A DNA stretch of 64,000 nucleotides from contig JAITFP010000075.1 of assembly GCA_031281275.1 (NCBI GenBank), positions 18,056 through 82,055 of the forward strand, given 5' to 3'. Positions 7,317 through 54,303 of this stretch are shown here, one piece after another. The notes beneath the pieces are model-generated. The model saw nothing but the letters and a program-made list of their open reading frames with translations. It was not told where the DNA came from and searched no databases. Source of the DNA: Candidatus Fibrimonadaceae bacterium. GTDB lineage: Bacteria > Fibrobacterota > Fibrobacteria > Fibrobacterales > Fibrobacteraceae. The first letter of the stretch is position 1. Each line of letters begins with the position of its first letter. The translations under genes were made by a program, and so were the position numbers.

Positions 7317-7325
7317 TCCTGTTTT

Positions 7326-7336: not shown

Positions 7337-7341
7337 ATTTT

Positions 7342-8478: not shown

Positions 8479-8480
8479 TA

Positions 8481-10529: not shown

Positions 10530-10933
10530 CTATGCGAAAATATATAAAATTGTTTACTAGTATAATTAAACACAAAAGCCACGCCGGTTCCGGCTATTTT
10601 TGAAAGCATTTTGTGAAAGCCCAAAATTTCCACGCAAAAGGCGGTCGTTCCCAAGTCAATGGCTAAACCTATTGCACCCACAAGAACTACCATCACAAAT
10701 TCAGTGCGTTTTTTTCTGCCTTCTTTGGATTTGAAAATAATTTTGCATAAAATAAAATTTACAGTTGCACTTATAAAAAAAGAGAACAATGCCGCAAGTA
10801 AATAGTACACTTCAAATTTAGAGTCTAAAAAATAAAAAACACTCCAATTCACAAATGCACAAAACAATCCGGCAAAAAAATATTGTATGAACATCGGTGC
10901 GAGCGATTTTAGAAAAGCCCTATTTACCCTCAT
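10526..10933 (-). CDS. GtrA-family membrane protein (second copy)
   Basis: 135 aa, 4 [24 protein letters not shown]...[13 protein letters not shown]...[13 protein letters not shown]. 4-nt overlap with the downstream gene. Confidence 0.5.
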
Positions 10934-12269: not shown

Positions 12270-12276
12270 GAGGTTT

Positions 12277-12287
12277 AATATAGAATT
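12277..12287 (-). promoter_or_regulatory. AATTCTATATT element 7 nt upstream of the ATG at 12269
   Basis: Minus-strand reading AAAATTCTATATTAAACCTCATG. Overlaps the plus-strand element by 2 nt inside a 38-bp divergent spacer. Confidence 0.4.
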
Positions 12288-12297
12288 TTTCTACATT
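12286..12297 (+). promoter_or_regulatory. TTTTTCTACATT element 10 nt upstream of the smc GTG
   Basis: Recurrent motif; there is no room for a separate SD leader. Confidence 0.4.
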
Positions 12298-12307
12298 AAC
12301 TTTCCCA

Positions 12308-15784: not shown

Positions 15785-15839
15785 TACGCAATTTTTTTTT
15801 CTAAATTAAGGGCTTAAATACATTTAATGGAGATGTTCG

Positions 15840-17126
15840 ATGAAAACTTTGCGTTTTGCTATTGTCGCAGCAGCCGTGGTCGGTAGCGTGTCTGTTTTTG
15901 CAACCAATGCTCGTGTAGAGTCTTTGGGAAAGAGTTCCACTTTTATTATGGACGACGTTTCAATTTTCGACAATCCTGCTAACATCAACCTTTATCCCAA
16001 TTTTTTAATAGGTGAGCTTGGCAACTATCTTTATCCCACAGGTAGCGTAGAGCCTGGGCAAAACCAAGACCCGCTTGATGCTTGGTTCGGTGGTATATTT
16101 TCGCTTAAAATTAGCCAAGATAATTCACTCTCCATTGCAGGTGTGTTAAACCGCAAAGAAGAAAGACTGTTGAAATATTTCCCAGATTGGATAGAGGGAA
16201 GCAACGGAATTAACAAAAAAACTCCAGCGCCTGTGACAAATTTTGATGGCTTTTTGGGTGCAAATCTAGACAACAAAGCCTTTGGTCTCCACATATATGT
16301 AGCTCATCAAGATGGCATTGACGGCGATGGTAACATTACCACAGACGGTTTTGTATCTGCTTTGCAATTAGACGCGGGCACGAATATTGAAATTTCAAGT
16401 AACTATTCCATAGAAGCTTCTATTGGTACTGCTCGCATGCAATATGGTCCTAGCAAGCGTAAATTTTTCGATACCGACCTACTTTCTCTATTTTTCGATG
16501 CCCGCATGTTTTCAAGAATTAGCGCTATAAATGGTCATTTGATTCCTGTGATTTCTTTTCGCAATATGAATGCACCAGGTCGTGATGAGCTAGATATTGG
16601 CGCAGGCGTGGGCGTGGATGCTGCCTTTGACAGAGGTTTCTTTTGGCTTGGCTTAAAAGGTTTCTATAATAAGCAACGCGCAGGAGACACATGGCAGCTT
16701 ATAAGCGGCGGTGAAACCGTATATATGGGCACGGGGGATGATACTTGGGGCAGAGATAGAACAACTCTGAAGCAAATTGGCGGCACAATTAGTTTTGGCA
16801 TTGAAAGAAATATTTGGTGGGATTGGTTTGTTCTCCGCGTTGGCGGTCAAAAAACCATTGCTTATGCAGACTACAAAGACAATGGCACTAATGTCAGCAG
16901 TATTTTGTGCCCAACTCAGGGAGGTTGCCCAACCAACGGAAATTACTTTGTAACCAACCCAGCTAACAATGGCACAAAAAGCGATAATGTTGGCTTTGGC
17001 TTTGGGATAAATATTGAAGAAAAGCTGAAAATAGATGCCGCCGTAGCCGAAGATGTTGTGTTCCGCAATCCATTCCAAGGTGAAGGTCGTTTAATAAGCA
17101 GAATTTCTGCAACTTATTCATTCTAA
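15840..17126 (+). CDS. outer-membrane beta-barrel (porin-like) protein
   Basis: 428 aa. Signal peptide MKTLRFAIVAAAVVGSVSVFA, alternating beta-strand pattern, C-terminal ...ISATYSF. Confidence 0.5.
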   Translation: MKTLRFAIVAAAVVGSVSVFATNARVESLGKSSTFIMDDVSIFDNPANINLYPNFLIGELGNYLYPTGSVEPGQNQDPLDAWFGGIFSLKISQDNSLSIAGVLNRKEERLLKYFPDWIEGSNGINKKTPAPVTNFDGFLGANLDNKAFGLHIYVAHQDGIDGDGNITTDGFVSALQLDAGTNIEISSNYSIEASIGTARMQYGPSKRKFFDTDLLSLFFDARMFSRISAINGHLIPVISFRNMNAPGRDELDIGAGVGVDAAFDRGFFWLGLKGFYNKQRAGDTWQLISGGETVYMGTGDDTWGRDRTTLKQIGGTISFGIERNIWWDWFVLRVGGQKTIAYADYKDNGTNVSSILCPTQGGCPTNGNYFVTNPANNGTKSDNVGFGFGINIEEKLKIDAAVAEDVVFRNPFQGEGRLISRISATYSF

Positions 17127-41541: not shown

Positions 41542-42150
41542 ATGGAAAAATACCAGATTATGATACAAAAACATCTAAAAAAATTAGACGAAAAAATTGA
41601 AATATTTATCAAATCGGGAAAACATTTACGAAATATCGCATTGATAGGCGTGGTATTTGCTGTAATAATAACAGTGAAAATTATAAATGCAATATTTGGG
41701 CAAACTTATGGTTCCGCAACAATCTATGGCAAAACATATAAAACCATTGTTATAGGCAACAAAACCTGGATGGCAGAGAATTTGAATCACGAAACACGAT
41801 TTTCAAAATGTTATGATAACGAATTCAGAAACTGCTACAAATATGGCAGATTATATAATTGGTACACAGCCCAAAAAATATGCCCTGAGGGTTGGCATTT
41901 GCCAGCAAATAACGAATGGGATGGGTTCTTTGCATCCTTGCTTGGTGGCATCGGTGTTCCCTATCCTACCGGCGACAGCACTATAGGTGCCAAATACTAC
42001 AATATTGACCATAGCGGCTATTGGTGGACTTCCACAAATTACGATATGGAAAATGCCATTGCCCGTAATATATACATAGATGAAGAACGCATTAAATGGG
42101 ACAAATTCGATAAAATAGGCTTGTTCAGTGTGCGGTGTGTTAAGAATTAA
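41542..42150 (+). CDS. membrane-anchored 'Fibrobacter succinogenes major paralogous domain' (FISUMP, TIGR02145-type) protein
   Basis: 202 aa with an N-terminal TM. IGNKTWMAENLN...YGRLYNWYTAQKICPEGWHLPANNEWD...GYWWTST. The 3' end overlaps the recC 3' end by 11 nt. Confidence 0.7.
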   Translation: MEKYQIMIQKHLKKLDEKIEIFIKSGKHLRNIALIGVVFAVIITVKIINAIFGQTYGSATIYGKTYKTIVIGNKTWMAENLNHETRFSKCYDNEFRNCYKYGRLYNWYTAQKICPEGWHLPANNEWDGFFASLLGGIGVPYPTGDSTIGAKYYNIDHSGYWWTSTNYDMENAIARNIYIDEERIKWDKFDKIGLFSVRCVKN

Positions 42151-45100
42151 AATACCCCCCAAACAACCTCTCAGAGCAACTCACAAATTCCCGTTCCACC
42201 CCCAAATCCTTCAAAGACTTTGCACTCCCTAAAACTTTTTTCGCATATTGAGAAAATTCTGCGAGTTCCCCATTAAAACCATTGCCGAAAATTTTTCCTT
42301 CCGCAACTTTTATTTTTTCTTCTTCGCTTTTATCAGATTTTAAATATTCCCAAGCAGCATCTGGGAAAATCGGCAACATTCTTTTTTCCAATTCCTGTTT
42401 TAGCTCCCATAATTTATTTAAAATTTCATTTGCTTCTTCTTTTGACATACCTCGCAATTCTATTACTGCATCTTTTAAAAATATTTTCGTATTTTGATTT
42501 TCATTCTTGGCATTTAAATTCAAATGATATAACCAATGTTTTAAACGATATTTGCCTTTATCTTTGTTCGGATAAATCCAATATGTTCCTTCCTTTTCAT
42601 TTTTTGCCTTTTCCTTTAACTCTTCCATTTCAATTGCCGTGCTGTCTATAATTTTGCTTGCAAATTTGCCGCTTGGCAAACTGCCTTTTAATTGGGAAAT
42701 TTTAACTTCTTCCATATATTTGTCGCGATTTTCATTTTTTAAAATCAAATCCGATAATTTCCACTTATCCAGCGCACTCTCTACAATGAAAGGTTCCTTA
42801 TTTTCCAATAGCTCAATAGGTTCTGGCAATTCTATTTTGCATACATATTTTAAAAAATACTTTGGAGCATCAGATAAAATTCTAAATAAAATATCAATAT
42901 CTCTTTTTTCTTCTGCTTCTTTGAATGAGGGTTTCCATTCCCAAATATTGCAATCAAAATTTTCAGAACTATGCCACCTATCATCATAAGTGCTCAATGT
43001 TCCGTTGAAATATTTTCTTGAAAAAGGTTGCAATGGATGTTTTACTATTAAATCTTTTTGTTCTATTCCATATTGTTCTTTCAAATTTTTCAAAAACATA
43101 ATCACTACGCTGGAAGGTTCAAGGTCTTCTGCAGTTTTTTCGCTTTGACCAATCCAACTTATGTAAAGTTTTTCCCTTGCACTGCAAATTAGCTCCAAAA
43201 ACATCAAGCGTTCCTCATTTGCCACATCTTTGTCGCCCTGTTTGTATTCTGTCATAAGGCTAATATCTTTGATTTGTCTTTGACGCGGAAATTCTTTGCT
43301 GTTCATTCCAATGCAGCAAATAACCTTGTGCGGAACAGCTCGTATTGTTTCAAAATTTGAAAAAGATACTTTGCCTGTCATAGAATATGATGATTTTGTG
43401 CTTGATTCCATTTTTCTCTGCAAAGCATTTTTCATCGTTGAAAAGCTAATTTGTACTTTTGAATTATTGCCAAAGCCTATGCATATTTCCTCTTTTAAAG
43501 AATTCCAAACATCTATGACTTTTTGGTAAGGGTCATCTTGGTCCTCGTTAAAATCAGTTGCATCATCGCCAAAAAATGCTGGCAAATTTTCCTTTAAAAA
43601 AACATCCCAGCCTTCTATTGATTTTTCCTTTTTGCTCTCAACATCAAATTTTTCCAAGGTTTTTACAAAATGCGCAAACTCGCCTAAAATATAAGCAGAA
43701 TTTCCCTCTATATCTGGATAGCAATAATCGCCAAGTTCAGAAAATCCATTTTCCGAAATCATAAAAAAACCCGCTTTCAACTGTTCAAATCCACCTGCAA
43801 AAGAATAATTAGGTGCTGGATCCGAGCTGTTAAGGCTATGCCGAATAGCATTTTCTTTAACCCATTTTTCCAAACGATCCCTATCGTTTGAATCCAACTC
43901 CCTGCCTTGCACGAACATTGAGTATTCAAACAAAGCGAGAATTTCTGGAGCTTCGTACCTACCGTCAATTTGAGAAAAGAGCAAATTCAAAAGTTGTGCG
44001 GTTTTATCGTATTTTTTTATATCTCTGTCTGCTATTTGAAATGGAATATCGTACCTGCGAAAAACGCTTTCTATTGAACTTGCATAAGTTTCAATGTTTG
44101 GAGAAACAACGGCTATATCGCTTGGCTTCAATGTTTTTTCCTCTGCAAATAAATCAAGCAAATAATCGCATAAAACTTCGATTTCTCTTAAAGGGGAAAA
44201 GCAACTGTTGAATGTTAGTCCTGTGTTTAAGGTACAAGGGACAAGGGATAAGGTATAAGATTTGTTGTTGTCTTGAATTATGTCATTTTGAATTTTTGAA
44301 AGCAAGGTTTCACTTGAATTCTTTTTTTCTGAGTTCAAAAATTCACAGGATATTTTTCCTTGTTCTTCGTACTGCGATATTTGCTCATAAATTACCTGCG
44401 CGCTTCTACCTAAATTTGCTATCAGTCTGTTGCCTAAATCCCAATATAGTTCATTTTCATTTGCAATTTTATTATTTGCCCAAGCCTCTTTTCGCATTCT
44501 TGCAATTTTCTTATCGCTAACAGAAGCCCCGATATATTCCTCGCTAACCTGAAGCAAATATAAATTCACTTTGCTGCCAGCCTTCGATAAATGGATTAAT
44601 GTTGATAGGTGAATTGGAGCAATTGACAAAGGGGCAAAAATGAAAATTTGTTTGGGCAAAAACTTTTTTTCGTTTTTTAATTCACTTTCAATAGATTTAT
44701 AAAGCTCATATATATTTTGTTCGTCTTTATATTTTTCTTTGAGTTCAAGCCAAAGTTTTTTTTGCCATTCTTCGTTTTTTGTAATGCTCTCATCTGGTTT
44801 ATTCTCTGTCCATTTTTCAATTAACTCTGGTCTGTAAATTTGATATGCAAAAAAGAGAGAAGCCAATTCACTAGCAAATAAGAATGTTTTTTTTTCGCCT
44901 TCCAGCAAAGCGTAAATTGCCCATACCAAATTGTGTGGGTTGTATATATTTTCTTTTTCGTCTTTTTTGTTTTGAGATAAATTGTAGGCACATTGCATTA
45001 AAAGCCCAACTAAGGGTTTGAAAGGCAATGCAGTCCATATTCCATATTTGTCTGCACAGGTTTTTTTCAAATATTCCTGCAAACCTTTTGATTCGCAAAT

Positions 45101-45226
45101 TATCAAACTACCACCAGTTAAAAATCCGCCTTTGGCGGCAGTTGCACCAAAGTTGCTTTTGGATAAAATATCTTCTAAAAACTTGTTAGCAAGCGTTTCT
45201 ATGTTTGTATGGAGGTATGTTTGCAT
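42140..45226 (-). CDS. recC: exodeoxyribonuclease V gamma subunit (RecC-like)
   Basis: 1028 aa. Size, the N-terminal MQTYLHTNIETLANKF (compare M..V.HSN.L..L...) and synteny with recB. Assignment is weaker than for recB. Confidence 0.65.
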   Translation of the reverse strand: MQTYLHTNIETLANKFLEDILSKSNFGATAAKGGFLTGGSLIICESKGLQEYLKKTCADKYGIWTALPFKPLVGLLMQCAYNLSQNKKDEKENIYNPHNLVWAIYALLEGEKKTFLFASELASLFFAYQIYRPELIEKWTENKPDESITKNEEWQKKLWLELKEKYKDEQNIYELYKSIESELKNEKKFLPKQIFIFAPLSIAPIHLSTLIHLSKAGSKVNLYLLQVSEEYIGASVSDKKIARMRKEAWANNKIANENELYWDLGNRLIANLGRSAQVIYEQISQYEEQGKISCEFLNSEKKNSSETLLSKIQNDIIQDNNKSYTLSLVPCTLNTGLTFNSCFSPLREIEVLCDYLLDLFAEEKTLKPSDIAVVSPNIETYASSIESVFRRYDIPFQIADRDIKKYDKTAQLLNLLFSQIDGRYEAPEILALFEYSMFVQGRELDSNDRDRLEKWVKENAIRHSLNSSDPAPNYSFAGGFEQLKAGFFMISENGFSELGDYCYPDIEGNSAYILGEFAHFVKTLEKFDVESKKEKSIEGWDVFLKENLPAFFGDDATDFNEDQDDPYQKVIDVWNSLKEEICIGFGNNSKVQISFSTMKNALQRKMESSTKSSYSMTGKVSFSNFETIRAVPHKVICCIGMNSKEFPRQRQIKDISLMTEYKQGDKDVANEERLMFLELICSAREKLYISWIGQSEKTAEDLEPSSVVIMFLKNLKEQYGIEQKDLIVKHPLQPFSRKYFNGTLSTYDDRWHSSENFDCNIWEWKPSFKEAEEKRDIDILFRILSDAPKYFLKYVCKIELPEPIELLENKEPFIVESALDKWKLSDLILKNENRDKYMEEVKISQLKGSLPSGKFASKIIDSTAIEMEELKEKAKNEKEGTYWIYPNKDKGKYRLKHWLYHLNLNAKNENQNTKIFLKDAVIELRGMSKEEANEILNKLWELKQELEKRMLPIFPDAAWEYLKSDKSEEEKIKVAEGKIFGNGFNGELAEFSQYAKKVLGSAKSLKDLGVEREFVSCSERLFGGYFNS

Positions 45227-45232
45227 TGTAAG

Positions 45233-45243
45233 AATATAGTAAA
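45233..45243 (-). promoter_or_regulatory. TTTACTATATT element 6 nt upstream of the recC ATG
   Basis: Minus-strand reading AACGTTTACTATATTCTTACAATG, directly after the stop of the preceding gene. Confidence 0.35.
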
Positions 45244-45246
45244 CGT

Positions 45247-46263
45247 TTAAACCTTCCTAAAATACCCTTCCTTCTCTGGCAAAAGAGAATCGGGGATTAA
45301 TTCTCTTGGAATTAGAACTGTCATTTTGTATTCGGCAACTTTAGGATGTTCTCCCGCCTGTAAACATAAAACGCCAGCTTTTATTATTGATGCTAATATT
45401 TTTTCGTAATAAGCAACAGAATTGTTGCAGTTTGTTTCTATCCAAGAATCTATATATTTTTCTACTATTTCTCTCTGCATTCCGTCAACCGCCATCTGTA
45501 TGCCAGTTTCTAAAAAATCTTTTTTCAAAAGTTTTTCTTTATCTATAAAGTTTTCCAAAGCAAGTATGCCCTCTCTACGGGCTATTTCGCAAAGTTTAAT
45601 TAACTTAATACATATTCTCTCGGCTTCCATTTCAAAAATTTTCTTCATTCCTATTTCCAAAACAGATTCATACTTGTAACGTGTTCTTGTTGCTCCACCC
45701 TGTACTTCTGTTGCTTCTATAACTTGTTCTTTAAGAGATTCTGGCACCAGCATAAACAGCCAGTCTTCCTGTTTAACCGCTTCAATGTACATATCTATGG
45801 TCTTAAATTTTTCTGGTACTTTAGTAAGCAACCACGCTGTCTTTTTAACCGCTTCAAACCAGAATTCTGCCGTTCTGATTTTTTCTGGCACCTCAGCGAG
45901 CAACCACTCATCTTTTTTAACCACTTCAAGCCAGAGTTCGGTTGTTCTAAATTTTTCTGGTATATATTCTTGTACCAATTCCCACGAATGCCTTTTAACT
46001 ATTTCAATATATAGTTCCACAGTCTTAGCATTTTCTGGTATGTATTCAAGTTCAAGAAAAACGCACCGGACTTTAATCGCTTCAAGACATACTTCCGTAG
46101 TTCTAAGTTCTTCTGGTACATAACGAAGTGCATAACGGTTTTCCTTTACTACTTTAAGAGCCTGCGCAACTGTTTTAATTTTTTTCTTCGGTTTGACTCT
46201 TTGGTAGTCTAATAAATTCTCTGTGAGCAAATCTATTTCTTCTTTGCTTAATATATCACCCAT
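45247..46263 (-). CDS. soluble protein: ~5 DUF4116-type 24-aa repeats followed by a TM-less MotA-cytoplasmic-domain-like region
   Basis: 338 aa. Repeats VPEKIRTAEFWFEAVKKTAWLLTK and similar. C-terminal ARREGILALENFID...FLETGIQMAVDGMQREIVEKY...IIKAGVLCLQAGEHPKVAEYKMTVLIP. No TM-length hydrophobic stretch. Confidence 0.55.
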   Translation of the reverse strand: MGDILSKEEIDLLTENLLDYQRVKPKKKIKTVAQALKVVKENRYALRYVPEELRTTEVCLEAIKVRCVFLELEYIPENAKTVELYIEIVKRHSWELVQEYIPEKFRTTELWLEVVKKDEWLLAEVPEKIRTAEFWFEAVKKTAWLLTKVPEKFKTIDMYIEAVKQEDWLFMLVPESLKEQVIEATEVQGGATRTRYKYESVLEIGMKKIFEMEAERICIKLIKLCEIARREGILALENFIDKEKLLKKDFLETGIQMAVDGMQREIVEKYIDSWIETNCNNSVAYYEKILASIIKAGVLCLQAGEHPKVAEYKMTVLIPRELIPDSLLPEKEGYFRKV

Positions 46264-47323
46264 TTTTCACCTCCAACTCTTCTTGATACACCGCCTCAAA
46301 AACTTCATTTTTCAAAGATTCCGGTATATCATCGTCAAGCAAATCTTTTAGACGAATTGTTACAAAATCTTCTCCCCACCATTTGCGCTTAGATTTGACT
46401 ACCTCAATGTAAAGCTCAACTGTTTTTAGGCGTTTTGGCACATCTTTAATTGCGAATGGGCTATTCTTAACCGCTTCAAGGCAAAGTTCTTTTGTCTTAA
46501 ATTCTTTTGGCACAAATTCAAGTGCACAACCGTAGTGCTCGGTTGCCTCGGCACAGAGTTCTTGTGTCTTAAATTTTTCTGGCACATATTTAAGTGCCCA
46601 ACCATTCTGCTTAACTGCTTTAACACAGAGCTCTTCTGTTTTGAATTCTTCTGGTACAAATTCAAGCGCGCAGCCGTCTTGTTCAACTGCTTTGCGGCAA
46701 AATTCTTCTGTTTTGAATTCTTTTGGCACAAATTCAAGCGCACAGCCGTATTGCTCGGTTGCTTCTGTGCAAAGTTCTTTGGTTTTGAATTTTTCTGGTA
46801 CATATTCAAGCATAATACCGCAATTTTTTATTGCATTGCAACATATTTCTTCTGTTCTAAATGCTTCTGGTATAAATTGAATCAGCCAACCATATTGTTT
46901 AATTCCTTCGGGGTAGAATTCTGTCCAAGTTGGTAGCAGTTCCATAGGAATAATGGATTTTATAAAAATATCAGTCATGCGAGGGTTTTCACCTGACTGA
47001 AGGCTTAAAATTCCAGTTTTGATAACCGAGAACAATATTTTATTGTAGTACTCGCAATGACCGGAACTATTTGCTCCTATCCAGAAATCTAAATATTCTT
47101 CTATTTTTGCGTTCTCCATTCCATCAACCACCATCTGCAAAGCAAATTCCAAAGGGTCTCCGTTTGGGTCTTTTTCTTTGTCTATAAACTTTTCAATGGA
47201 CAAAAGCCCTTCTCTTCTACACATCATAGCGGCAAAGCATATACGAAAGTGTATCCTCTCGTATTCTTTTTTGAAAGCCTCCACAGTAGCTTTTTCTACG
47301 GCTGATTCATATTTGATAGTCAT
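46256..47323 (-). CDS. soluble protein: MotA-cytoplasmic-domain-like region followed by ~7 DUF4116-type repeats
   Basis: 355 aa from MTIKYESAV (AGGAGG RBS; the track ORF extends to 47368). CRREGLLSIEKFID...LEFALQMVVDGMENAKIEEY...VIKTGILSLQSGENPRMTDIFIKSIIP, then VPEKFKTKELCTEATEQYGCALEF repeats. Confidence 0.55.
   Translation of the reverse strand: MTIKYESAVEKATVEAFKKEYERIHFRICFAAMMCRREGLLSIEKFIDKEKDPNGDPLEFALQMVVDGMENAKIEEYLDFWIGANSSGHCEYYNKILFSVIKTGILSLQSGENPRMTDIFIKSIIPMELLPTWTEFYPEGIKQYGWLIQFIPEAFRTEEICCNAIKNCGIMLEYVPEKFKTKELCTEATEQYGCALEFVPKEFKTEEFCRKAVEQDGCALEFVPEEFKTEELCVKAVKQNGWALKYVPEKFKTQELCAEATEHYGCALEFVPKEFKTKELCLEAVKNSPFAIKDVPKRLKTVELYIEVVKSKRKWWGEDFVTIRLKDLLDDDIPESLKNEVFEAVYQEELEVKNG
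46430..46900. repeat. 72-nt-period in-frame tandem repeat array (DUF4116 units)
   Basis: TT(T/C)TGG(C/T)ACA(A/T)ATT(C/T)AAG recurs near 46505, 46575, 46647, 46719 and 46791. The units at ~46505 and ~46719 are near-identical. Confidence 0.7.
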
Positions 47324-47348
47324 TTTTTCACCTCCTTTCTGCTTATTT

Positions 47349-47969
47349 TTAGAAGGGCAGTTCGCCATTGAAGCATTTTCCCTCGTTTTCTAAGGCTCGT
47401 TTTGCTATCTCTATAGGCTCAATGCACCACTGAACAATTTCTGGAACAGCCACTTTAAGCTCTGCAATAGCCTTGCTAAAATATTCATCGTCATAATTAA
47501 TACTTTTGCAAAGATACGCTCGCGCCCGCCATATTCGAGCTTCAAGGCAGTCTGGATCTTTTTCAAGCGCAGCGGTGTAGCTTGTTATTGCTTCGTCATA
47601 GTCTTCATTGACAAAATATTCATCGGCTTTGGTTAGGAATTTAAGAATATGAATTGGTTTTTGTGCGAAATAACCGTTTTCAAAAACTAAAGTCTCGTAG
47701 CTTGCCTGTTTTGTGTTAGCTGCAATGAGTGCTTTTGCTTCTGCAGCATCTACATTGTATTGCAAGAATAAAGTTTCGGCAACCGTTTTCCAATCGGTTT
47801 CGCTGCTTGCTACGCTGTCAAATTTGCAAACACCGTCAATTTTGACTGTTATTGAGCGAAGCATCGCTACTGCTTCTTTTTCAATGGCGTTCAAAATTTT
47901 CTGGTCTGAGCGCAGGTCATAGATTCTGCTTGCTATGGCTTTTGCTTCTTGTTTTATTGTATCACCCAT
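47349..47969 (-). CDS. TPR-containing protein
   Basis: 206 aa. ADEYFVNEDYDEAITSYTAALEKDPDCLEARIWRARAYL is a TPR signature. AGGAGA RBS. First gene of a 3-gene operon. Confidence 0.55.
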   Translation of the reverse strand: MGDTIKQEAKAIASRIYDLRSDQKILNAIEKEAVAMLRSITVKIDGVCKFDSVASSETDWKTVAETLFLQYNVDAAEAKALIAANTKQASYETLVFENGYFAQKPIHILKFLTKADEYFVNEDYDEAITSYTAALEKDPDCLEARIWRARAYLCKSINYDDEYFSKAIAELKVAVPEIVQWCIEPIEIAKRALENEGKCFNGELPF

Positions 47970-48007
47970 ATTTTTCTCCTATTAGGCCATAATAGCCATT
48001 TATTAGT

Positions 48008-48032
48008 ATATAACATACAATATCCAAAAATG
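48008..48032. repeat. 25-bp sequence ATATAACATACAATATCCAAAAATG, identical to 52387-52411
   Basis: Exact match read in both places. In both cases it lies just upstream (minus-strand sense) of the first gene of a DUF4116 block and is followed by a TTTTTCTATTTT element. Confidence 0.85.
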
Positions 48033-48040
48033 GGGTTATT

Positions 48041-48052
48041 TTTTTCTATTTT
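48041..48052 (+). promoter_or_regulatory. TTTTTCTATTTT element 9 nt upstream of the ATG at 48062
   Basis: Variant of the recurrent motif. Confidence 0.35.
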
Positions 48053-48061
48053 ATAAAAATT

Positions 48062-48487
48062 ATGTCCGCAAAAGACCACAAAGCAAAAGAGAAAAAAGAA
48101 ATTGCTCAAATGCTTGCAAAGCAGCTCAGGGCTGGTACTTATTTTGCCAAGAAGGAAGAAGACGGATATGCGATATTTTCCAAGGAAGGCAATATTAAAA
48201 TCGGTAGCCTTGTTATCAATAGAAGATACGGTACTCGCATATTCAAATCTTTTGTATATGAAAAAGGAATGAAGCCTAAAGGCATCCCTACGGAATTTAC
48301 AACTTCATTGCTCAGTCCAGTCTGGGACTTTTGCTATAAAAACTTAGGTCCCATAGAAGGCTTTGAAAAACCAGAAAAACCAGATTTATACGGCAAAAGA
48401 TTTTGGAAACATGCAACTAGGGAAGAACGACGTGCAGCCATAGAAGAATATATAGAATGTTTGGATCGCCAGGTGTTTTCCAGCTAA
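48062..48487 (+). CDS. hypothetical basic protein (141 aa)
   Basis: ORF with an upstream promoter-like element. No family recognised. Confidence 0.4.
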   Translation: MSAKDHKAKEKKEIAQMLAKQLRAGTYFAKKEEDGYAIFSKEGNIKIGSLVINRRYGTRIFKSFVYEKGMKPKGIPTEFTTSLLSPVWDFCYKNLGPIEGFEKPEKPDLYGKRFWKHATREERRAAIEEYIECLDRQVFSS

Positions 48488-48488
48488 C

Positions 48489-50054
48489 TCAACACCCAAA
48501 AACTGTTATTTTATCATATTCTCTAACATACAATTTCTCTTCCCAGCTCTTGCTCACATCCCTGTCAAAAACAACAAGCCAGCCTCTTTTCGTTCCGCAT
48601 CTCTCCATATAAGCAGAAAGCTGAACCAAGCCTTCTGGAATGGTTTGCTCATTCTTTAATATCTTAAGCTCAATAGGATATTTTTTGCCTTCCCATTCTA
48701 TGCAAATATCAGCACGTTTTTTACCCAAAGCCATCTCTCTGGATATGCTGCCGCCGCCGTTTAGAACCCGCTGCAAAAAAGCTTGTATAACCAAATGCGG
48801 AGCGGCTTCATCGTACTGGTAAAAATTCTCTTTGTAACGCTTTATCCATATTTCGCTATTCTCACGCCAAAAAAACTGAAACTCGCGTAACAGAGTATCT
48901 ATATCTATTTTATCATCTTTCACATATTTGGGCAGGTTATCATCAGGTCTTTCAAGTTTAATGCTATCTTGCAACGAATAATTCAAGGCTCTTACTATCA
49001 CTTCAGCGTAAATCGGATTCGCAGGCTCAACAACGCCATTCTCGGAATCTCTTATCAAACCCAAATCCCTTGTGTATAGATAATCATCAGAACTTTTATC
49101 TATAAACATCTCGCCTAGTATAAGTGGTTCTATTATATTACGAACCCTATTTTCCTTTAGCCTCTCCATTAAACTGTCAAAATGCGTGCCCCTAGCTAAA
49201 ATTATGTTGTTGATTGCGGTTTTTGCCATTTCTATCGTTATGGGAATCGCGTAATCTTTTTTACAGATTTTTTCCACACATTCACGAGCTACTGCGTTTA
49301 CCAACCAGGGATGCCCTTGGGTTTGTTCATAAATGTAATCCGTTGCCTGTGCCTCAAAAACTTGCTTCGTTTCTTGTGTGTGTTGGTTGTAAAGCTCGGT
49401 CACATTTTCTTTCGTGAAATTTCTCAAATTCAAACTTTCGGTCACAATATTAAACGGGCTTGAACTGCCTAGCGTTTCGCTGTCACTCCTGATGTGGGCT
49501 TTATAGTCTCTTATATTCCTCATTCCAACAAGAGCAATGCTGTGAACAAATGGAGTTCTTGCACGGGAAACAAAACCATTCCGCAATTGTCTTAAAAAAG
49601 TGATTAAGGTTCCGTTGCTGAGGCAATCCGCTTCGTCAAAAAGTATAATCAAAGGCTTATCCAAAGAGCGGCAATAGTCCACAAGCGCAATGTTTAGCAC
49701 ATTTGACACTCTGCTACAATCCGCCTCCTTTGCAAAATCTGGTGGCAGACCTTGGATTTTTATGCAATCCTCTATATTTCTAACAATTTCGGGTATTCCC
49801 CTTTCTGGTTCGGTAAATGATTGCACTCCTTCTAAAGAACAATACAAAGCATGGTATTTGCCTTCTGCGTTTATTTTATCCGCAAGCTCCAGCAAGAGAG
49901 TTGTCTTTCCGCTCTGTCTTGAGGCATGGATAACGAAATATTGTTTTGAATCTATCAAATCCATTAATTCTTTGCAAATGCCACGCAAAGGGTCGAGCAT
50001 ATAATGTTCGTTTGTATTACAAGGACCTGCTATGTTGAAGTATTTTTGAGGCAT
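48489..50054 (-). CDS. AAA-type ATP-binding protein with C-terminal PD-(D/E)XK-like nuclease domain
   Basis: 521 aa from MPQKYFNIAGPCNTNEHYML (the track ORF extends to 50147). Walker A HASRQSGKTTLL, Walker B LIILFDEAD. C-terminal RADICIEWEGKKYPIELKILK (D..E.K). Confidence 0.6.
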   Translation of the reverse strand: MPQKYFNIAGPCNTNEHYMLDPLRGICKELMDLIDSKQYFVIHASRQSGKTTLLLELADKINAEGKYHALYCSLEGVQSFTEPERGIPEIVRNIEDCIKIQGLPPDFAKEADCSRVSNVLNIALVDYCRSLDKPLIILFDEADCLSNGTLITFLRQLRNGFVSRARTPFVHSIALVGMRNIRDYKAHIRSDSETLGSSSPFNIVTESLNLRNFTKENVTELYNQHTQETKQVFEAQATDYIYEQTQGHPWLVNAVARECVEKICKKDYAIPITIEMAKTAINNIILARGTHFDSLMERLKENRVRNIIEPLILGEMFIDKSSDDYLYTRDLGLIRDSENGVVEPANPIYAEVIVRALNYSLQDSIKLERPDDNLPKYVKDDKIDIDTLLREFQFFWRENSEIWIKRYKENFYQYDEAAPHLVIQAFLQRVLNGGGSISREMALGKKRADICIEWEGKKYPIELKILKNEQTIPEGLVQLSAYMERCGTKRGWLVVFDRDVSKSWEEKLYVREYDKITVFGC

Positions 50055-50061
50055 TAGGGGT

Positions 50062-50072
50062 AAAATAGAATT
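50062..50072 (-). promoter_or_regulatory. AATTCTATTTT element 7 nt upstream of the ATG at 50054
   Basis: Minus-strand reading TTCAAAATTCTATTTTACCCCTAATG. Supports the shorter start. Confidence 0.35.
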
Positions 50073-50285
50073 TTGAATCGCTCGTATAAGAGTGAGCTGG
50101 AAAAAAACGATTTTCGCAATATCTGCATAAATAGTGATATTCATCACAAATAATAAAAAAATTGCAAAAATAACTTAGCTTTTTGCATATCGCATGTTAT
50201 ATAGAGAAATCAAACTACAAAGTTTCTGGTGACGAGTGTCATGAAATTTAATTGTAGTTAAATGCCAAAAATAGGAGATTATATT

Positions 50286-50489
50286 ATGGCAATAGCATCA
50301 GTAATACAAAAAAACGGTCAGATAACAGCTTATGACGAAAACAACCGAATGCTTTTTCAAAAGTTTGCTCCCACTGGTGGGAACACCGAACTTATGGGTT
50401 ACACATCATCAACGGTTACTATTAAGCGAGCTCATGAGATAATCGTTTATGATGACCGCGGCAATACAAAATCCCAAAGGTTTGCATAG
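50286..50489 (+). CDS. small hypothetical protein (67 aa)
   Basis: AGGAG RBS before the ATG at 50286. MAIASVIQKNGQITAYDENNRMLFQK... Confidence 0.35.
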   Translation: MAIASVIQKNGQITAYDENNRMLFQKFAPTGGNTELMGYTSSTVTIKRAHEIIVYDDRGNTKSQRFA

Positions 50490-50604
50490 TATCTGACAGA
50501 AGAATTATTTGGTTTTTCGTATTTAACAATAATTTGTATCTTTCGCTATGATTTTAGCATAGTGCAAATTATGTATATAGTTCCCCTCCTTAGATTTGAA
50601 ATTG

Positions 50605-51273
50605 CTACGATGAAGAGATTTTTTCAATAATTTTTTTCCATCCGTTTTTTGGATTGTCTAAGCAATTCTCAATATTTTTTTTTGATATAGAAACATTCCG
50701 CCAATTGTTCAGAAAAAGTATGTTTTTGTATGTTTTTAATTCTTCAATCTGGGAAAACAACTGCTTTCTCATTACAATAAATAATTTTCGCTCGGTTATG
50801 GCTTTTTCAATTAGAGCTTGATTGTATTCCTGAGATGGAATACATACTTTTCCGCTAGTCCATTTATTGGAATGATAAGGAAAATATTCTACGCAAAATA
50901 CATTATTGGCAACTTTTTTAATGCCACATTCTTCTATAAGTTCTTTTAATCTCTGTCTCCACCATTTGCCGCCATTTGTTTCTTTTAAATTATCATTCAA
51001 ATAATAAAATGGGCATTTATGTCTATAATTTTTGAAAATATAATTTTTAAGATCTTCCATATCCTCTTTATCTGCCTCGTTAAACCCTGGATTTAAATTT
51101 AATAAATAAACTTGAGCTTCAGGATTTCCTATAAATGGTTCAGGAAACAATTCTAAGTTTAACTTATTTCGTAATTTATCTATATGTGCTCTATCAATGT
51201 CTAAAATATATTCGCCATTAGCATCAGACGAATTTTTCATTTTTTCCCATGGATTTGGAGTATCCGTTTTCAT
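50605..51273 (-). CDS. hypothetical protein (222 aa); weak resemblance to uracil-DNA-glycosylase-superfamily motifs
   Basis: GAGGAAAA RBS. PFIGNPEAQVYLLNLNPG and VEYFPYHS loosely recall UDG motif A (G..PxAxhhhhGExPG) and motif B (HPS). Speculative. Confidence 0.35.
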   Translation of the reverse strand: MKTDTPNPWEKMKNSSDANGEYILDIDRAHIDKLRNKLNLELFPEPFIGNPEAQVYLLNLNPGFNEADKEDMEDLKNYIFKNYRHKCPFYYLNDNLKETNGGKWWRQRLKELIEECGIKKVANNVFCVEYFPYHSNKWTSGKVCIPSQEYNQALIEKAITERKLFIVMRKQLFSQIEELKTYKNILFLNNWRNVSISKKNIENCLDNPKNGWKKIIEKISSS

Positions 51274-51310
51274 TTTTCCTCACTTGGGCTTTGCCCGGTT
51301 AATTGTTTGG

Positions 51311-51655
51311 TTATAATATAGAAACTCCTTCATCATCATTATCTGCCATATATTTTTTCATTACAATCTTGATTTTTGGAGTTATGAGTTCCTTGGGCAC
51401 AAATTCAATCGCATCGCCAGTTTGCTTTACCGCAGCAAGGCAAATCTCCGAGATTTTTAGTTCTACAGGCACATATTGAAGCGCACAGCCGTTTCTCTTC
51501 ACCGCAGCAAGGCAAAGTTCTGGGGTTTTGTGTTTAGATGGTACGTAAGCCAGTTCATAGCCCCATTGCTTTACAACGGCAAGGCATAATTCATAAGTTT
51601 TGAATTTTGTGGGAACGAATTTAAACGTATCGGAGTTATTTTTCACCATAATCAT
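51311..51655 (-). CDS. DUF4116-type repeat protein (~4 units)
   Basis: 114 aa from MIMVKNN. ATGA overlap with the upstream stop (51652-51655). VPSKHKTPELCLAAVKRNGCALQY repeats. Confidence 0.55.
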   Translation of the reverse strand: MIMVKNNSDTFKFVPTKFKTYELCLAVVKQWGYELAYVPSKHKTPELCLAAVKRNGCALQYVPVELKISEICLAAVKQTGDAIEFVPKELITPKIKIVMKKYMADNDDEGVSIL

Positions 51656-52380
51656 TTCCCCTTCACCAACAATTTCTCCACTTCTAACCTCATACTCTCT
51701 GGAACCCAATTTCTATTATAAGGATATGCTTTGCACGCCTCAAAGCACAATTCCACTGTTTTCAGATTTTCTGGAACCCTACTAAGAGCATCGCCGCAGC
51801 TTGTTACGAATGCTTTGCAAAATTCTGGAGTTATCAAGTCTTTTGGAACTAAGTTCAAGCTCATAATACTCCCAAGAGCATCGTCACTTTGCAGAACGGC
51901 GGCAAGGCACATTTCTGTTGTTCTCAAATTTTCTGGAACAGCTTCAAGATTACGCCAGTCTTTTTTCACAGCGGTTAGGCACAATTCCGACGTTTTCAAA
52001 TTTTCTGGAGTGCAATAAAAATCATTTAGACCGGAGTATTTTACATTTTTTACATTCCTTTTAATTATACGCTCCAAGCCTTCTTTGCGACTTATCAAGT
52101 CTTTTCGTTCTATGCGCAATTTAGAGTTTTCTTTAAGTAAATAATCAATTATGTCTGCCAAGCCATTGGGTAAAACGTAAAGAGGGTTTGCTGGCTCATT
52201 TCTGTGTTCATAATGCTCTTTATAATCCAGCAAAGCCTTTCTCATATTTATTTTCCAACTTATATTTTGCAGAATGTCTATTTTCTGCTCCATTGTGGTT
52301 CTATTATATTCATCGCAATAAGGGTCTAAACATTCCCTTAATTTGCCCAAAAGCTCGTTTAAATCTAAAGTTTCACTCAT
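51652..52380 (-). CDS. protein with N-terminal helical region and ~4 DUF4116-type repeats
   Basis: 242 aa from MSETLDL. I prefer this start because the 5 upstream codons of the track ORF fall inside the duplicated 25-bp promoter-region repeat. TPENLKTSELCLTAVKKDWRNLEA repeats. Confidence 0.5.
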   Translation of the reverse strand: MSETLDLNELLGKLRECLDPYCDEYNRTTMEQKIDILQNISWKINMRKALLDYKEHYEHRNEPANPLYVLPNGLADIIDYLLKENSKLRIERKDLISRKEGLERIIKRNVKNVKYSGLNDFYCTPENLKTSELCLTAVKKDWRNLEAVPENLRTTEMCLAAVLQSDDALGSIMSLNLVPKDLITPEFCKAFVTSCGDALSRVPENLKTVELCFEACKAYPYNRNWVPESMRLEVEKLLVKGK

Positions 52381-52386
52381 ATTTAC

Positions 52387-52411
52387 ATATAACATACAAT
52401 ATCCAAAAATG
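52387..52411. repeat. second copy of ATATAACATACAATATCCAAAAATG
   Basis: Identical to 48008-48032. Followed by GGTATTTTT...TTTTTCTATTTT as in copy 1, with a ~16-nt indel. Confidence 0.85.
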
Positions 52412-52448
52412 AGGTATTTTTGGCAAAAAAATTTTATTTTTCTATTTT

Positions 52449-53642
52449 TTAGCTTTTTATGGCATTTTTCACCTCTCTTTTAATATATGCTGGCACATAT
52501 TTAAGCACATAGCCATTTTGTTTAACCGCTTCAATGCAAAGTTTAGCAGTTTTGAAGGCTTTAGGAACATATTTGAGCATATAACCATCTTGCTTAACCG
52601 CTTCAAGGCACATTTCCGCAGTCTTTAAGTTTTCTGGCACATATTGAAATGCCCAGCCACACCGCAGCTTTACCGCTTCATTGCAGAATTTAGCCGTTTT
52701 TATAGTTTCTGGCACATAGTTAAATGCATAGCTATTTTGCTTAATCGCTTCAAGATAGATTTTGGCAGTTTTGAGATTTTCTGGCACATATTCAAGCATT
52801 TTGCCCTCATTGCCTTGCATTGCTTTAAAACAGATTTTGGGAGTTTTTAGGGATTCTGGCACGTATTTAAATGCAGAGCAATTACTTTTAACCGCCTCAA
52901 GGCAGAGTTCCTCTGTTTTTAAATTTTCTGGCACATATTCAAGCCAGCAGCCGTTCTTTTTAACTGTTTCAAAATACATTTCCGCAGTCTTTAAGTTTTC
53001 TGGCACGTGTTTAAGCACATCAACTCCATTCATAACTGCTTCAAAGCAAAGTTCTGCGGTCTTGAGATTTTCTGGCACATATTCAAGCATCATCCCATCG
53101 CGCTTAACCGCTTCAAGGCAAAGTTCAGCGGTTTTTAGATTTTCTGGCACATATTTAAGGGCATCGCTATCTTGTTTAACTGCTTCAAGGCAGAGTTCAG
53201 CGGTTTTCAAATTTTCTGGCACATATCTAAGTATCCAGCCTTCGTGCTTAATCGCTTCAATGTAGAGTTCAGCGGTTTTTAAGTTTTCTGGCAATTCAAG
53301 CCAATCAACCCAACGGTATTTGGTGGAAATAGGCTTAGGCTCGGCAAGATTATGCAATGAGTTTATAAAATTCTTTATAGATTCTTGGGCGTGAGCAATA
53401 AATCTAGTTCCATCACAAGGAAATGTTTCTATGGCTTTAATTAAACCCTTTGTTCCTGCTTTCACAAGATGCTGCATAGGCGCTCTGTCTTTATATCTCA
53501 TTGCAATTTTCAAAACATAATTCATATTTGCGTCTATTAATTTTTTTCGCGCAGCACGGTCTTTTTTATTTTCCAATAAATGATATTCCTCTTCCATTGT
53601 TAAAGCTGGAATATCTTTGTATTTGTATTTTTCTTCATTCAT
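52449..53642 (-). CDS. sigma-70 region-2-like N-terminal module fused to 11 DUF4116-type repeats (no region 3/4)
   Basis: 397 aa from MNEEKYKYK (the ATG lies 1 nt after the trkA stop). LTMEEEYHLL...ARKKLIDANMNYVLKIAMRYKDRAPMQHLVKAGTKGLIKAIETFPCDGTRFIAHAQESIKNFI, then 11 copies of VPENLKTAELCLEAVKQxGxxLxY. Confidence 0.55.
   Translation of the reverse strand: MNEEKYKYKDIPALTMEEEYHLLENKKDRAARKKLIDANMNYVLKIAMRYKDRAPMQHLVKAGTKGLIKAIETFPCDGTRFIAHAQESIKNFINSLHNLAEPKPISTKYRWVDWLELPENLKTAELYIEAIKHEGWILRYVPENLKTAELCLEAVKQDSDALKYVPENLKTAELCLEAVKRDGMMLEYVPENLKTAELCFEAVMNGVDVLKHVPENLKTAEMYFETVKKNGCWLEYVPENLKTEELCLEAVKSNCSAFKYVPESLKTPKICFKAMQGNEGKMLEYVPENLKTAKIYLEAIKQNSYAFNYVPETIKTAKFCNEAVKLRCGWAFQYVPENLKTAEMCLEAVKQDGYMLKYVPKAFKTAKLCIEAVKQNGYVLKYVPAYIKREVKNAIKS
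52480..53300. repeat. 72-nt-period in-frame tandem repeat array (11 units)
   Basis: TTTTCTGGCACATAT(T/C) recurs at roughly 72-nt spacing (near 52631, 52777, 52923, 52995, 53067, 53147, 53209, with degenerate copies between). Several units share stretches of more than 20 nt identity. Confidence 0.75.
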
Positions 53643-53643
53643 A

Positions 53644-54303
53644 TTACATCCTATCCAAGGCTTCGTTTGGTCCAAATAAAAATAATGCATCTCCATCACT
53701 AAATTCATATTGTGCTTTTGGAACAGCGTTTAGCTTTCCTGTTTTTGCATCTTTAATGGCAATAACCTGAACTCCATATTTGTTTATCAAATTAGCATCC
53801 ATCAATGTTTTGCCCACCAAGTTTTTGGGGCATTTCCATTCCATAACAGAATAACCGTCCATAAGCGGCATAAAATCCAAAATGTTGGGGCGACCTATTT
53901 TATCCAGTTTGTTTGCGAGTTCAACAGCCATATCACGTTCTGGTTGGAATATGTATTCTGGAAGCAAACCCATTTTTTCAAGTATTGCGCAATGAGCGGT
54001 ATCGTTTGCTTTTGCCATTATGTTCATCACACCCATTTCCTTTAAATTTAAAATTGTGATAAGCGAACTTTCAAGAGAGCCTATGCACACTATCACAAAA
54101 TCTGCTTTGGCAAGCGGAAATCTTTGCAGCATATTTTTTCTTAAAGAATCTGCAACTGCCGCCTGCGAAGCAAAAGGCGTTATGTCTTGGACAATTTCTG
54201 CTTCCTTATCTACGGCAAGCACCGAATGCCCAAGCTCCGACAAACGCTTCACTAAAAGAATGCCTGTATTTCCAAGCCCTATCACTATGAATTGTTTAGA
54301 CAT
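53644..54303 (-). CDS. trkA: Trk/Ktr potassium uptake NAD-binding subunit
   Basis: 219 aa. FIVIGLGNTGILLVKRLSELGHSVLAVD Rossmann motif plus a TrkA-C-like C-terminus. Confidence 0.85.
   Translation of the reverse strand: MSKQFIVIGLGNTGILLVKRLSELGHSVLAVDKEAEIVQDITPFASQAAVADSLRKNMLQRFPLAKADFVIVCIGSLESSLITILNLKEMGVMNIMAKANDTAHCAILEKMGLLPEYIFQPERDMAVELANKLDKIGRPNILDFMPLMDGYSVMEWKCPKNLVGKTLMDANLINKYGVQVIAIKDAKTGKLNAVPKAQYEFSDGDALFLFGPNEALDRM

Follow-up and report, generated by a model that had tools for sequence, protein, structure and literature searches.

The subject of this report is an accessory island of closely spaced genes that lies between trkA and recC in a 64,000-nucleotide stretch of the genome of a Candidatus Fibrimonadaceae bacterium (assembly GCA_031281275.1, contig JAITFP010000075.1; the whole stretch is hereafter the window). 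Six minus-strand genes of this island are designated G1 to G6, and five of them encode proteins built on DUF4116 (PF13475), a repeat of 24 residues. The ends of the repeat solenoids bear an intact sigma2 domain (G1), a MotA cytoplasmic domain twice (G5 and G6), and an EIDAL-like peptide of the kind found in FliM (G6). Because these repeat proteins carry intact docking pieces, docking on the sigma and motor machines is the reading we favor: at a rough probability of 0.4, G1, G5, and G6 are adaptors, that is, soluble alpha-solenoids whose ends imitate machine interfaces and dock on the partners of the parent machines.

Layout of the island and the DUF4116 repeat

The list of open reading frames (ORFs) places G1 to G6 on the minus strand between trkA and recC in two blocks, 53642-51311 (G1 to G3) and 47969-45247 (G4 to G6), as an earlier interpretation made without database searches (hereafter the sequence-only reading) had described (Table 1). 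That interpretation had also defined the 24-residue repeat and its consensus, both of which are confirmed by Pfam, by the spacing of the units, and by a 72-bp tandem periodicity in the DNA of the repeat genes. Pfam finds DUF4116 in five of the six genes at E values of 1e-62 to 1e-10, with scores well above the gathering score of 24.9 bits (G1, 207.7 bits, E 1.1e-62; G2, 41.2 bits, E 1.2e-10; G3, 81.7 bits, E 2.6e-23; G5, 145 bits, E 4.4e-43; G6, 62.4 bits, E 3e-17). A motif scan recovers the consensus VPExLKTxELCLEAVKxxGxxLxY at a strict 24-residue period, with approximately 11-12 units in G1, 4 in G2, 3-4 in G3, 7 in G5, and 5-6 in G6. The proposal that all six genes carry the repeat must be corrected, however, as G4 has no DUF4116 match in Pfam and no repeat unit in the motif scan, and is therefore not a member of the family. 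DUF4116 itself is predicted to form an all-helical alpha-solenoid (PMC8078820).

The genes are tightly packed. The start of G3 overlaps the stop of G2 in an ATGA at 51652-51655, which was read directly, and the ORF coordinates give an 8-nt overlap of G5 and G6 at 46256-46263, so that both overlaps of the sequence-only reading stand; additionally, the ATG of G1 at 53642 lies 1 nt past the trkA stop. A hydrophobicity scan (criterion, a hydrophobic 19-mer above 1.6; TrkH as the positive control) detects neither a transmembrane (TM) segment nor a signal peptide in any of the six proteins. The remainder of the window holds no additional DUF4116 or MotA-like motif. A promoter and terminator scan returned 50 promoter-like sites vs 40.7 expected, and no minus-strand terminator within the island. 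Run SRR14710904 includes a contig that matches part of the island without any difference. Two plus-strand ORFs, at 52762-53265 (167 aa, within G1) and 46535-46936 (133 aa, within G5), are shadows of the repeats and not genes.

A soluble MotA domain and an EIDAL-type peptide in G5 and G6

The N-terminus of G5 and the C-terminus of G6 match full-length MotA, PomA, and MotP models of NCBIfam in the cytoplasmic loop only (profile positions ~62-135), at E 2.8e-7 for G5 (positions 72-133) and E 1.2e-10 for G6. Together with PDB matches to MotA, these results uphold the two MotA-cytoplasmic-like domains discerned earlier. In the PDB search, residues 61-134 of Bacillus subtilis MotA (6ysl) correspond to G6 residues 200-276 and residues 217-248 to G6 residues 289-320; the G6 domain therefore joins the TM2-TM3 loop to the C-terminal tail and skips TM3 and TM4. 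When two real MotA proteins are added to the alignment, it shows that TM3 and TM4 are precisely deleted and that TM1 and TM2 are absent in both G5 and G6, neither of which matches PF01618 (MotA_ExbB) in Pfam or possesses the four TM segments of a stator. The conserved start of G5 is probably at 47323. The alignment preserves the motif RREG(I/L)L(A/S)(L/I)E without exception, the G5 version being CRREGLLSIE, and we equate the opening Arg and closing Glu of the motif with R90 and E98 of Escherichia coli MotA, residues reported by Zhou and Blair to contact the torque helix of FliG. The AlphaFold2 model of G6 has a predicted local distance difference test score (pLDDT) of 89.9, and its top Foldseek matches are MotAB stators, with a probability of 1.0, including 6ysf and the FliG-bound 8ucs. 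A genome-contig scan with the MotA-like domain as query found nothing.

At the opposite end of G6, residues 5-14 (LSKEEIDLLT) follow the EIDAL pattern of FliM, a feature that the sequence-only reading had overlooked. The G6 peptide, MGDILSKEEIDLLTE, stands at the same N-terminal position as its counterpart in E. coli FliM, whose N-terminus is MGDSILSQAEIDALLN; G6 differs from FliM in having neither the middle domain nor the SpoA domain and in reading EIDLL rather than EIDAL, and the segment is best described as a putative docking peptide. In FliM, the N-terminal EIDAL motif is the docking site for CheY (PMC6946799). Among 270 proteins, an EIDAL-like motif was matched eight times within the first 60 residues, vs 0.015 matches expected from shuffled sequences. 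It occupies the same N-terminal position in the G6 orthologue of L005 and in P0012, P0267, and P0215 (L and P numbers designate, respectively, contigs or loci of relatives and proteins of relatives), and it is found as well in two other soluble MotA-domain proteins, P0030 and P0083. A PDB search with the 30-residue N-terminus of G6, a query too short for the purpose, gave no match.

A sigma2 head on G1

Residues 10-95 of G1 match sigma regions 1.2-2.3 in many sigma models of NCBIfam, with the RpoS, SigK, and RpoH models at E 5e-10 to 1e-8 across residues ~30-115 of the 419-aa ORF form of G1, and the head matches the RpoS sigma2 fragment 5h6x in the PDB (E 5.4e-11). The sigma region-2-like module of the sequence-only reading is thus well founded. 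The Pfam Sigma70_r2 score of G1 is 17.5 bits, under the 24-bit cut-off, and that of a paralogue, L002:15098-16771, is 31.3 bits. An AlphaFold2 model built on database homologues of G1 (pLDDT 90.8) depicts a four-helix head, a disordered linker at residues 103-109, and an unbroken solenoid; the head superimposes on the N-domain of SigE (8b3z) with a root-mean-square deviation of 1.4-1.6 Å across 72 residues. With the sigma head alone as query, a word-indexed protein search found nothing.

Judged from its sequence, G1 carries a sigma2 domain yet cannot be a promoter-recognizing sigma factor, because regions 3 and 4 are absent and region 2.3 is degenerate. The head stops at approximately residue 100, no Sigma70_r3 or r4 match is obtained in Pfam or NCBIfam, region 2.4 is also absent, and region 2.3 reads IAHAQESI in G1 vs YAxWWIRQ in paralogues of a related genome and in RpoS (YATWWIRQ in its intact form).

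The companion genes G2, G3, and G4

The head of G2 has no relatives detected in Pfam, NCBIfam, PDB, or PHROGs; G2 shares 84% identity with its orthologue in L005 and 83% with that in L008. G3 consists only of repeats; its counterpart in L005 is a 259-aa protein of 7 repeats, and an additional gene of 441 aa and 14 repeats comes next there. G4 is instead a TPR protein, with a TPR_16 score of 34.0 bits in Pfam (cut-off, 32.7 bits) and a PDB match to a consensus TPR at E 8e-19, and its N-domain has no relatives detected in Pfam, NCBIfam, or PDB.

Conservation and turnover of the island

A TrkA-based scan assigns the window to Candidatus Fibrimonadaceae, among Fibrobacterota metagenome-assembled genomes (MAGs) from samples of the termite-gut type. 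Four sibling genomes differ by a synonymous divergence (dS) of ~0.3-0.6 at trkH, trkA, and recC. In L005 the island is present with the same gene order, without the ATPase gene that lies between the 75-aa and 141-aa genes of the window. The L008 contig reads trkA-G1-(99 aa)-ATPase-G2-Brig1-like and stops there. Because dS is ~0.3-0.46 across the island, the Brig1-like gene excepted, the island was inherited together with its flanks in the window, L005, and L008. The equally close congener L009, whose TrkA and RecC are 94% and 86% identical to those of the window, lacks the cluster, and no DUF4116 gene lies beside trkA in more distant relatives (TrkA 74-79% identical) or in Fibrobacter species. 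A mobile element with a target-site duplication was considered and rejected, as no repeat is visible at the trkA and recC junctions.

Ratios of nonsynonymous to synonymous divergence (dN/dS) are low throughout. For G1 the ratio is 0.07-0.09 (window vs L005 and L008), equal to that of trkA and recC (0.09), and for G2 to G6 it lies between 0.23 and 0.32 (G2, 0.29-0.32; G3, 0.23 across the part shared with L005; G4, 0.23; G5, 0.28; G6, 0.27). All six genes are intact and, by this measure, under purifying selection. That the genes are non-functional remnants, either decaying duplicates or spurious ORFs generated by the repeats, might be entertained on the grounds that repetitive DNA does yield long shadow ORFs on the opposite strand; given that all six ORFs are intact in three genomes, with dN/dS of 0.07-0.32 at dS ~0.3-0.46, and given confident AlphaFold2 models and very high Pfam scores, we assign this idea a negligible probability. 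Decay in particular is excluded by the low dN/dS values, in agreement with the sequence-only reading.

Associations among the genes recur beyond this locus. In L004, a more distant relative, the C-terminal part of a G6-like gene that lies on the contig is accompanied by a G5-like gene, an EIDAL-DUF4116 gene, and interleaved TPR genes of 210 and 186 aa, with the TPR, MotA-type, and EIDAL-type genes showing 58-64% identity. As these genes are grouped in two species-level contexts, the window with L005 and again L004, the association of a TPR protein with MotA-type and EIDAL-type DUF4116 proteins is a recurrent one, which vindicates the TPR partner that had been proposed from the sequence. At other loci (L002, L003, L034, L036, and L037, from metagenome Ga0268262), DUF4116 arrays are differently composed. 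Those in L002, L003, L034, and L037 sit upstream of a Peptidase_S49 (SppA-like) gene, and that in L036 is a separate array; at the Peptidase_S49-side locus the number of genes varies among genomes (the L002 array occupies 7224-16771). These arrays mix DUF4116, sigma heads, Fib_succ_major, ADP-ribosylglycohydrolase, and the MotA domain, occasionally in one protein. Examples are a stand-alone sigma head of 107 aa and a protein of 901 aa that joins a sigma-like head and DUF4116 to a MotA domain and two Fib_succ_major domains; neither has an N-terminal signal peptide.

The locus is a strain-variable accessory tandem array of paralogues for cytoplasmic alpha-solenoid proteins and not a fixed multi-component machine. 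The sequence-only reading had instead favored one dedicated six-component system, which might be tied functionally to its genomic neighbors (envelope, K+ homeostasis, cellulose adhesion). Tight packing on a single strand, translational coupling, and a gene order conserved in L005 and in part in L008 speak for such a system. However, the cluster is missing from L009, in which trkA and recC are intact and adjacent; its composition varies, with a longer G3 and the extra 441-aa gene in L005 and the ATPase gene between G1 and G2 in L008; both blocks are seen together only in this species group, the arrays on the long contigs of L002, L003, L034, L036, and L037 being different; and the repeat is confined to five of the genes. 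The conserved linkage that would be expected of a dedicated system is seen in L005 and partly in L008 and is absent from L009 and from the arrays found elsewhere. Since the island is dispensable beside trkA, as L009 illustrates, no link to trkA or K+ transport is indicated. On balance, a six-component system is very unlikely.

Wider families of soluble MotA domains and DUF4116 fusions

The soluble MotA domain of G5 and G6 belongs to a sizable family. A profile search of 1.84 billion representatives returned 1074 proteins (counted as clusters at 50% identity), 183 of them at E <= 1e-10, and architectures were read among the 150 matches listed, ~140 of which have no predicted TM segments. Neither Pfam nor NCBIfam has a model dedicated to this domain, which full-length MotA models touch below their cut-offs. 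It occurs as stand-alone proteins of 120-150 aa, in two to five tandem copies, and in fusions to FliG_C or FliG_M, LRR, TPR, and DUF4116. Five listed proteins (P0007, P0010, P0014, P0019, and P0021) have five tandem copies, and at least P0007 and P0010 end in FliG_C; their architecture gives these two the look of a MotA pentamer mimicked in a single chain and joined to the FliG rotor partner. Because fusions to FliG_C and FliG_M recur and the five copies match the MotA pentamer, we argue that a FliG-facing function has probably been retained. One stand-alone protein, P0102, lies on a contig of 585 bp, and a search of phage GenBank with a stand-alone protein found nothing. In the literature found there is nothing relevant on FliG-like proteins with MotA-like proteins or on a soluble MotA cytoplasmic domain.

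The combination of one repeat scaffold with modules of unrelated machines, which the sequence-only reading had seen in the window, proves general in the DUF4116 family, with sigma2, alpha-CTD, FliG, FliM, FtsZ, MotA, and DarT modules among its fusions. A search with G1 found 960 DUF4116 relatives; their source names include Treponema, Spirochaetia, Desulfovibrionaceae, and Fibromonadaceae MAGs, so that the family spans phyla. Heads confirmed by hmmscan comprise FliG_C (two copies), FliM plus FliG_M, the RNA polymerase alpha-CTD, and FtsZ (GTPase and C-domain), and further DarT, BRCT, resolvase, and peptidase C80. On our reading of the sequences, the fusions keep those alpha-CTD residues that contact DNA, and they also keep the FtsZ tubulin signature. 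Proteins with fusions of these kinds include P0161, P0173, P0192, P0207, P0252, P0176, P0256, and P0226. In the PHROGs collection, the matches are limited to repeat families without an assigned function and a weak sigma match, and when phage sequences were searched with G1, the DUF4116-like stretches were few and confined to seven records. The array at L030:1-17707 (JGI Ga0672845_0000590) comprises ten or more DUF4116 paralogues in tandem, each 550-600 aa long, with a SocA_Panacea gene of the antitoxin type in its middle, and another DUF4116 copy is situated near AbiEii and SbcCD-like genes.

Such breadth also invites the view that DUF4116 is a generic protein-binding repeat, comparable to ankyrin or TPR repeats, which domain shuffling has joined to many different domains in a heterogeneous, lineage-specific expansion; the six neighbors would then be dispersed paralogues of unrelated function that share no mechanism. 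Non-repeat extensions of at least 90 aa in 92 of 115 DUF4116 relatives differ from one another and are mostly unannotated, the heads range over transcription, motility, division, and DNA enzymes, close relatives differ in the numbers of genes and repeats, and tandem arrays of at least ten paralogues exist elsewhere. Yet the orders G1-G2-(G3) and G4-G5-G6, with their stop/start overlaps, are kept at dS ~0.3, the TPR, MotA-type, and EIDAL-type combination is met again in L004, and the heads are enriched for the interfaces of a few machines, chiefly the flagellar motor (MotA domain, FliG_C, FliG_M, FliM, EIDAL). We consider an expansion devoid of a shared mechanism to be unlikely.

Proposed action of the adaptors

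If G1, G5, and G6 are machine-mimicking adaptors, their modules would still bind the partners that they bind in the parent machines, and the DUF4116 solenoid would provide a rigid spacer and assembly surface. Block 2, composed of the TPR protein G4 together with G5 and G6, may then work at the rotor-stator interface of the host flagellar motor. The N-terminus of G6 would be recruited by phosphorylated CheY (CheY-P), or would titrate it, while G5 and G6 would occupy the C-domains of FliG in competition with real stator units, and the outcome could be an effect of the brake, clutch, or speed-modulating type. In contrast to Fibrobacter, the host family (Ca. Fibrimonadaceae/Fibromonadaceae) is predicted to possess flagella and chemotaxis (PMC4704652). 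Block 1 (G1 to G3) might dock on the RNA polymerase core, at the beta-prime clamp helices, through its sigma2 head and without promoter recognition. Docking of G1 on RNA polymerase is uncertain, owing to the substitution of core-binding residues and the degenerate region 2.3, and its sequence makes this a weaker proposal than that for block 2. Being accessory and of fast turnover, the island fits niche-specific tuning to the termite gut better than a core function. More broadly, DUF4116 proteins may constitute a class of soluble machine-mimic adaptors, whose scaffolds would display interface modules cut from core machines (sigma2, alpha-CTD, MotA cytoplasmic domain, FliG, FliM, FtsZ); G6, G5, and the TPR protein would form a CheY-P-recruited stator mimic, and G1 would be a sigma-competitive protein docking on RNA polymerase; this extension we offer tentatively, as a rather doubtful generalization.

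Several observations weigh against the adaptor reading. Residues D403, Q406, E407, and N409 in region 2.2 of sigma70 matter for core binding, and G1 has H, K, A, and T at these positions. The EIDAL match of G6 is just 10 residues long and degenerate at the 'A' (EIDLL). The congener L009 does without the island, the ATG of recC lying 8 nt past the trkA stop. Some DUF4116 heads, namely DarT, resolvase, peptidase C80, ADP-ribosylglycohydrolase, and Fib_succ_major, fall outside the motor and transcription theme, and the Brig1-like gene and mobile ATPase within the island fit a role in conflict or defense equally well. Finally, the literature found on DUF4116 holds a structure-prediction mention only and no experimental datum.

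Other genes of the island and a possible role in defense

The sequence-only reading had described the two blocks as separated by a single insert of 3.2 kb. This segment proves to be a composite, in which only the ATPase gene is a recent insertion; L005 also possesses the Brig1-like, 75-aa, and 141-aa genes.

Table 1. Genes and sub-features of the trkA-recC interval, in coordinates of the window
Feature	Coordinates	Strand	Length	Description
trkA	53644-54303			flanking gene
Accessory island	45227-53643			occupies the trkA/recC spacer, which is 8 bp long in L009
G1	52449-53642	minus	397 aa	sigma-70 region 1.2-2.3 head, disordered linker, 11-12 DUF4116 repeats
G1 head	~53343-53642	minus		sigma2-type head
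G1 repeats	52449-53294	minus		DUF4116 repeats
G2	51652-52395	minus	247 aa (probably 243 aa, second ATG)	~128-aa head and 4 DUF4116 repeats
G3	51311-51655	minus	114 aa	DUF4116 repeats only (3-4)
Brig1-like gene	50605-51273	minus	222 aa	NCBIfam NF047634, E 4e-10, ~115 residues
75-aa ORF	50262-50489	plus	75 aa	84% identical to L005 ORF 6692-6910
ATPase gene	48489-50147	minus	552 aa	AAA_35-type, Pfam AAA_35 E 1.4e-10
141-aa ORF	48062-48487	plus	141 aa	~86% identical in L005 (87% by BLASTP), dN/dS 0.24, no family matches
G4	47349-47969	minus	206 aa	N-domain and TPR repeats, no DUF4116
G5	46256-47368	minus	370 aa	soluble MotA cytoplasmic domain, then 7 DUF4116 repeats
G5 MotA domain	~46919-47320	minus		soluble MotA cytoplasmic domain
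G6	45247-46263	minus	338 aa	EIDAL-type peptide, 5-6 DUF4116 repeats, linker, soluble MotA cytoplasmic domain
G6 peptide	46222-46251	minus		putative docking peptide MGDILSKEEIDLLTE
G6 repeats	~45748-46161	minus		DUF4116 repeats
G6 MotA domain	45253-45663	minus		soluble MotA cytoplasmic domain
recC	42140-45226			flanking gene

The 222-aa protein, which stands outside the repeat family, resembles the anti-phage DNA glycosylase Brig1 (PMC11078745) over part of its length with a score of 39.6 bits, far under the 230-bit cut-off, and by sequence would be a distant Brig1 homologue at best. Its identity is 57% to the L005 protein (global alignment) and 37% to that of L008 (BLASTP), and its dS is 1.09 vs ~0.3 in neighboring genes; the low identity (57%) and high dS suggest replacement of the allele at a fixed position. 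The 75-aa ORF has no family match in Pfam, NCBIfam, PADLOC, or PHROGs. The ATPase gene is a single-gene insertion of 1.65 kb (48483-50128) between the 75-aa and 141-aa genes, with no transposase or flanking repeats seen, and the C-terminus of its product has what we infer to be a PD-(D/E)XK-like nuclease motif. A copy 87.7% identical lies between G1 and G2 in L008; L005 has none at the site occupied in the window and carries a 24%-identical ATPase paralogue between G6 and recC. From these positions, the gene behaves as a single-gene mobile cassette. Variation extends past recC, where the window encodes a Fib_succ_major-type protein (41542-42150, plus strand); in L005 (15101-17003) an extra 401-aa ATPase-like gene precedes the Fib_succ_major-type protein, and in L009 a 999-aa gene directly follows recC.

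The company of such genes raises the possibility that the DUF4116 proteins are immune baits or decoys, the heads of which mimic targets attacked by phages (sigma factor and RNA polymerase, alpha-CTD, FtsZ, the flagellar motor). A phage factor bound to a decoy-solenoid would then trigger or block something, much as integrated decoys do in plant NLRs. The island has an accessory, hypervariable character, the Brig1-like homologue has been swapped for very divergent alleles (dS 1.09), and a mobile AAA/PD-(D/E)XK-like ATPase resides within the island, all of which would fit such a role. DUF4116 is fused to DarT, resolvase, peptidase C80, and ADP-ribosylglycohydrolase, arrays lie beside SocA_Panacea and AbiEii genes, and closely similar repeats in Treponema, Desulfovibrionaceae, Spirochaetia, and Fibromonadaceae MAGs suggest horizontal spread. 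Moreover, G1 gives weak partial PADLOC matches to MzaA and Tmn (both E 1.4e-4), and its sigma head is weakly matched to MzaA in NCBIfam as well. However, PADLOC finds no system, and apart from the two weak G1 matches, the remaining nine proteins have none. Neither Pfam nor PADLOC reveals an effector, NTPase switch, or nuclease in fusion with any of G1 to G6, and the arrays of L002, L034, and L031 have no defense neighbors. The Brig1 match is, as noted, far below its cut-off. Constraint on G1 is at the housekeeping level (dN/dS 0.07), which is unexpected for an arms-race sensor, and the architecture of EIDAL peptide plus MotA domain has a simple physiological reading. A decoy function, the main rival of the adaptor reading, seems improbable to us.

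Comparison with known systems

The five repeat genes share with the DUF4116 family its 24-residue unit and all-helical solenoid prediction, at scores far above gathering; their combinations with a sigma2 head, a soluble MotA domain, and an EIDAL peptide are absent from the DUF4116 literature found. More generally, these architectures and the soluble MotA-domain family do not appear in the papers found, and none of the domain libraries searched has a model dedicated to them.

Each module can be set beside the machine from which it presumably derives. G5 and G6 align with the cytoplasmic loop and C-terminal tail of MotA and keep the pair equivalent to R90 and E98, but unlike the stator (MotA5B2) they have no TM helices, proton channel, or MotB partner; being soluble and fused to repeats, they are not stators. 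Minimal or split sigma proteins include T4 gp55 and the SigO-RsoA pair of B. subtilis. The G1 head resembles the sigma2 proteins of the sigma-70 family in its regions 1.2, 2.1, and 2.2 and in its fold, and differs from them in the absence of regions 2.4, 3, and 4, in the substituted core-binding residues, and in the fusion to 11-12 repeats. Soluble brakes and clutches of the flagellum are exemplified by YcgR, EpsE, and MotI. By analogy with these proteins, the action proposed for G5 and G6 would be that of a signal-responsive soluble protein at the FliG-stator interface, although they are unrelated in sequence and fold; G5 and G6 would copy the stator's own rotor-binding domain, with the CheY-P peptide as the proposed input.

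Implications

The island supplies DUF4116, a large cross-kingdom repeat family, with concrete candidate partners, namely FliG, CheY-P, and the RNA polymerase core. If docking on the rotor is true, the G5 and G6 type of protein would represent a new class of motor regulators, in which a brake or clutch is made from the rotor-binding domain of the stator itself, and would provide ready-made soluble reagents for study of the stator-rotor interface; the soluble MotA-domain family, with its more than 1000 clusters, would then be an unnoticed layer of motor biology. If the proteins are instead decoys, bacteria would possess an equivalent of the integrated decoys found in plant immune receptors. In either case, there would be an explanation for the sharing and diversification of these genes among termite-gut Fibrobacterota, spirochaetes, and Desulfovibrionaceae.

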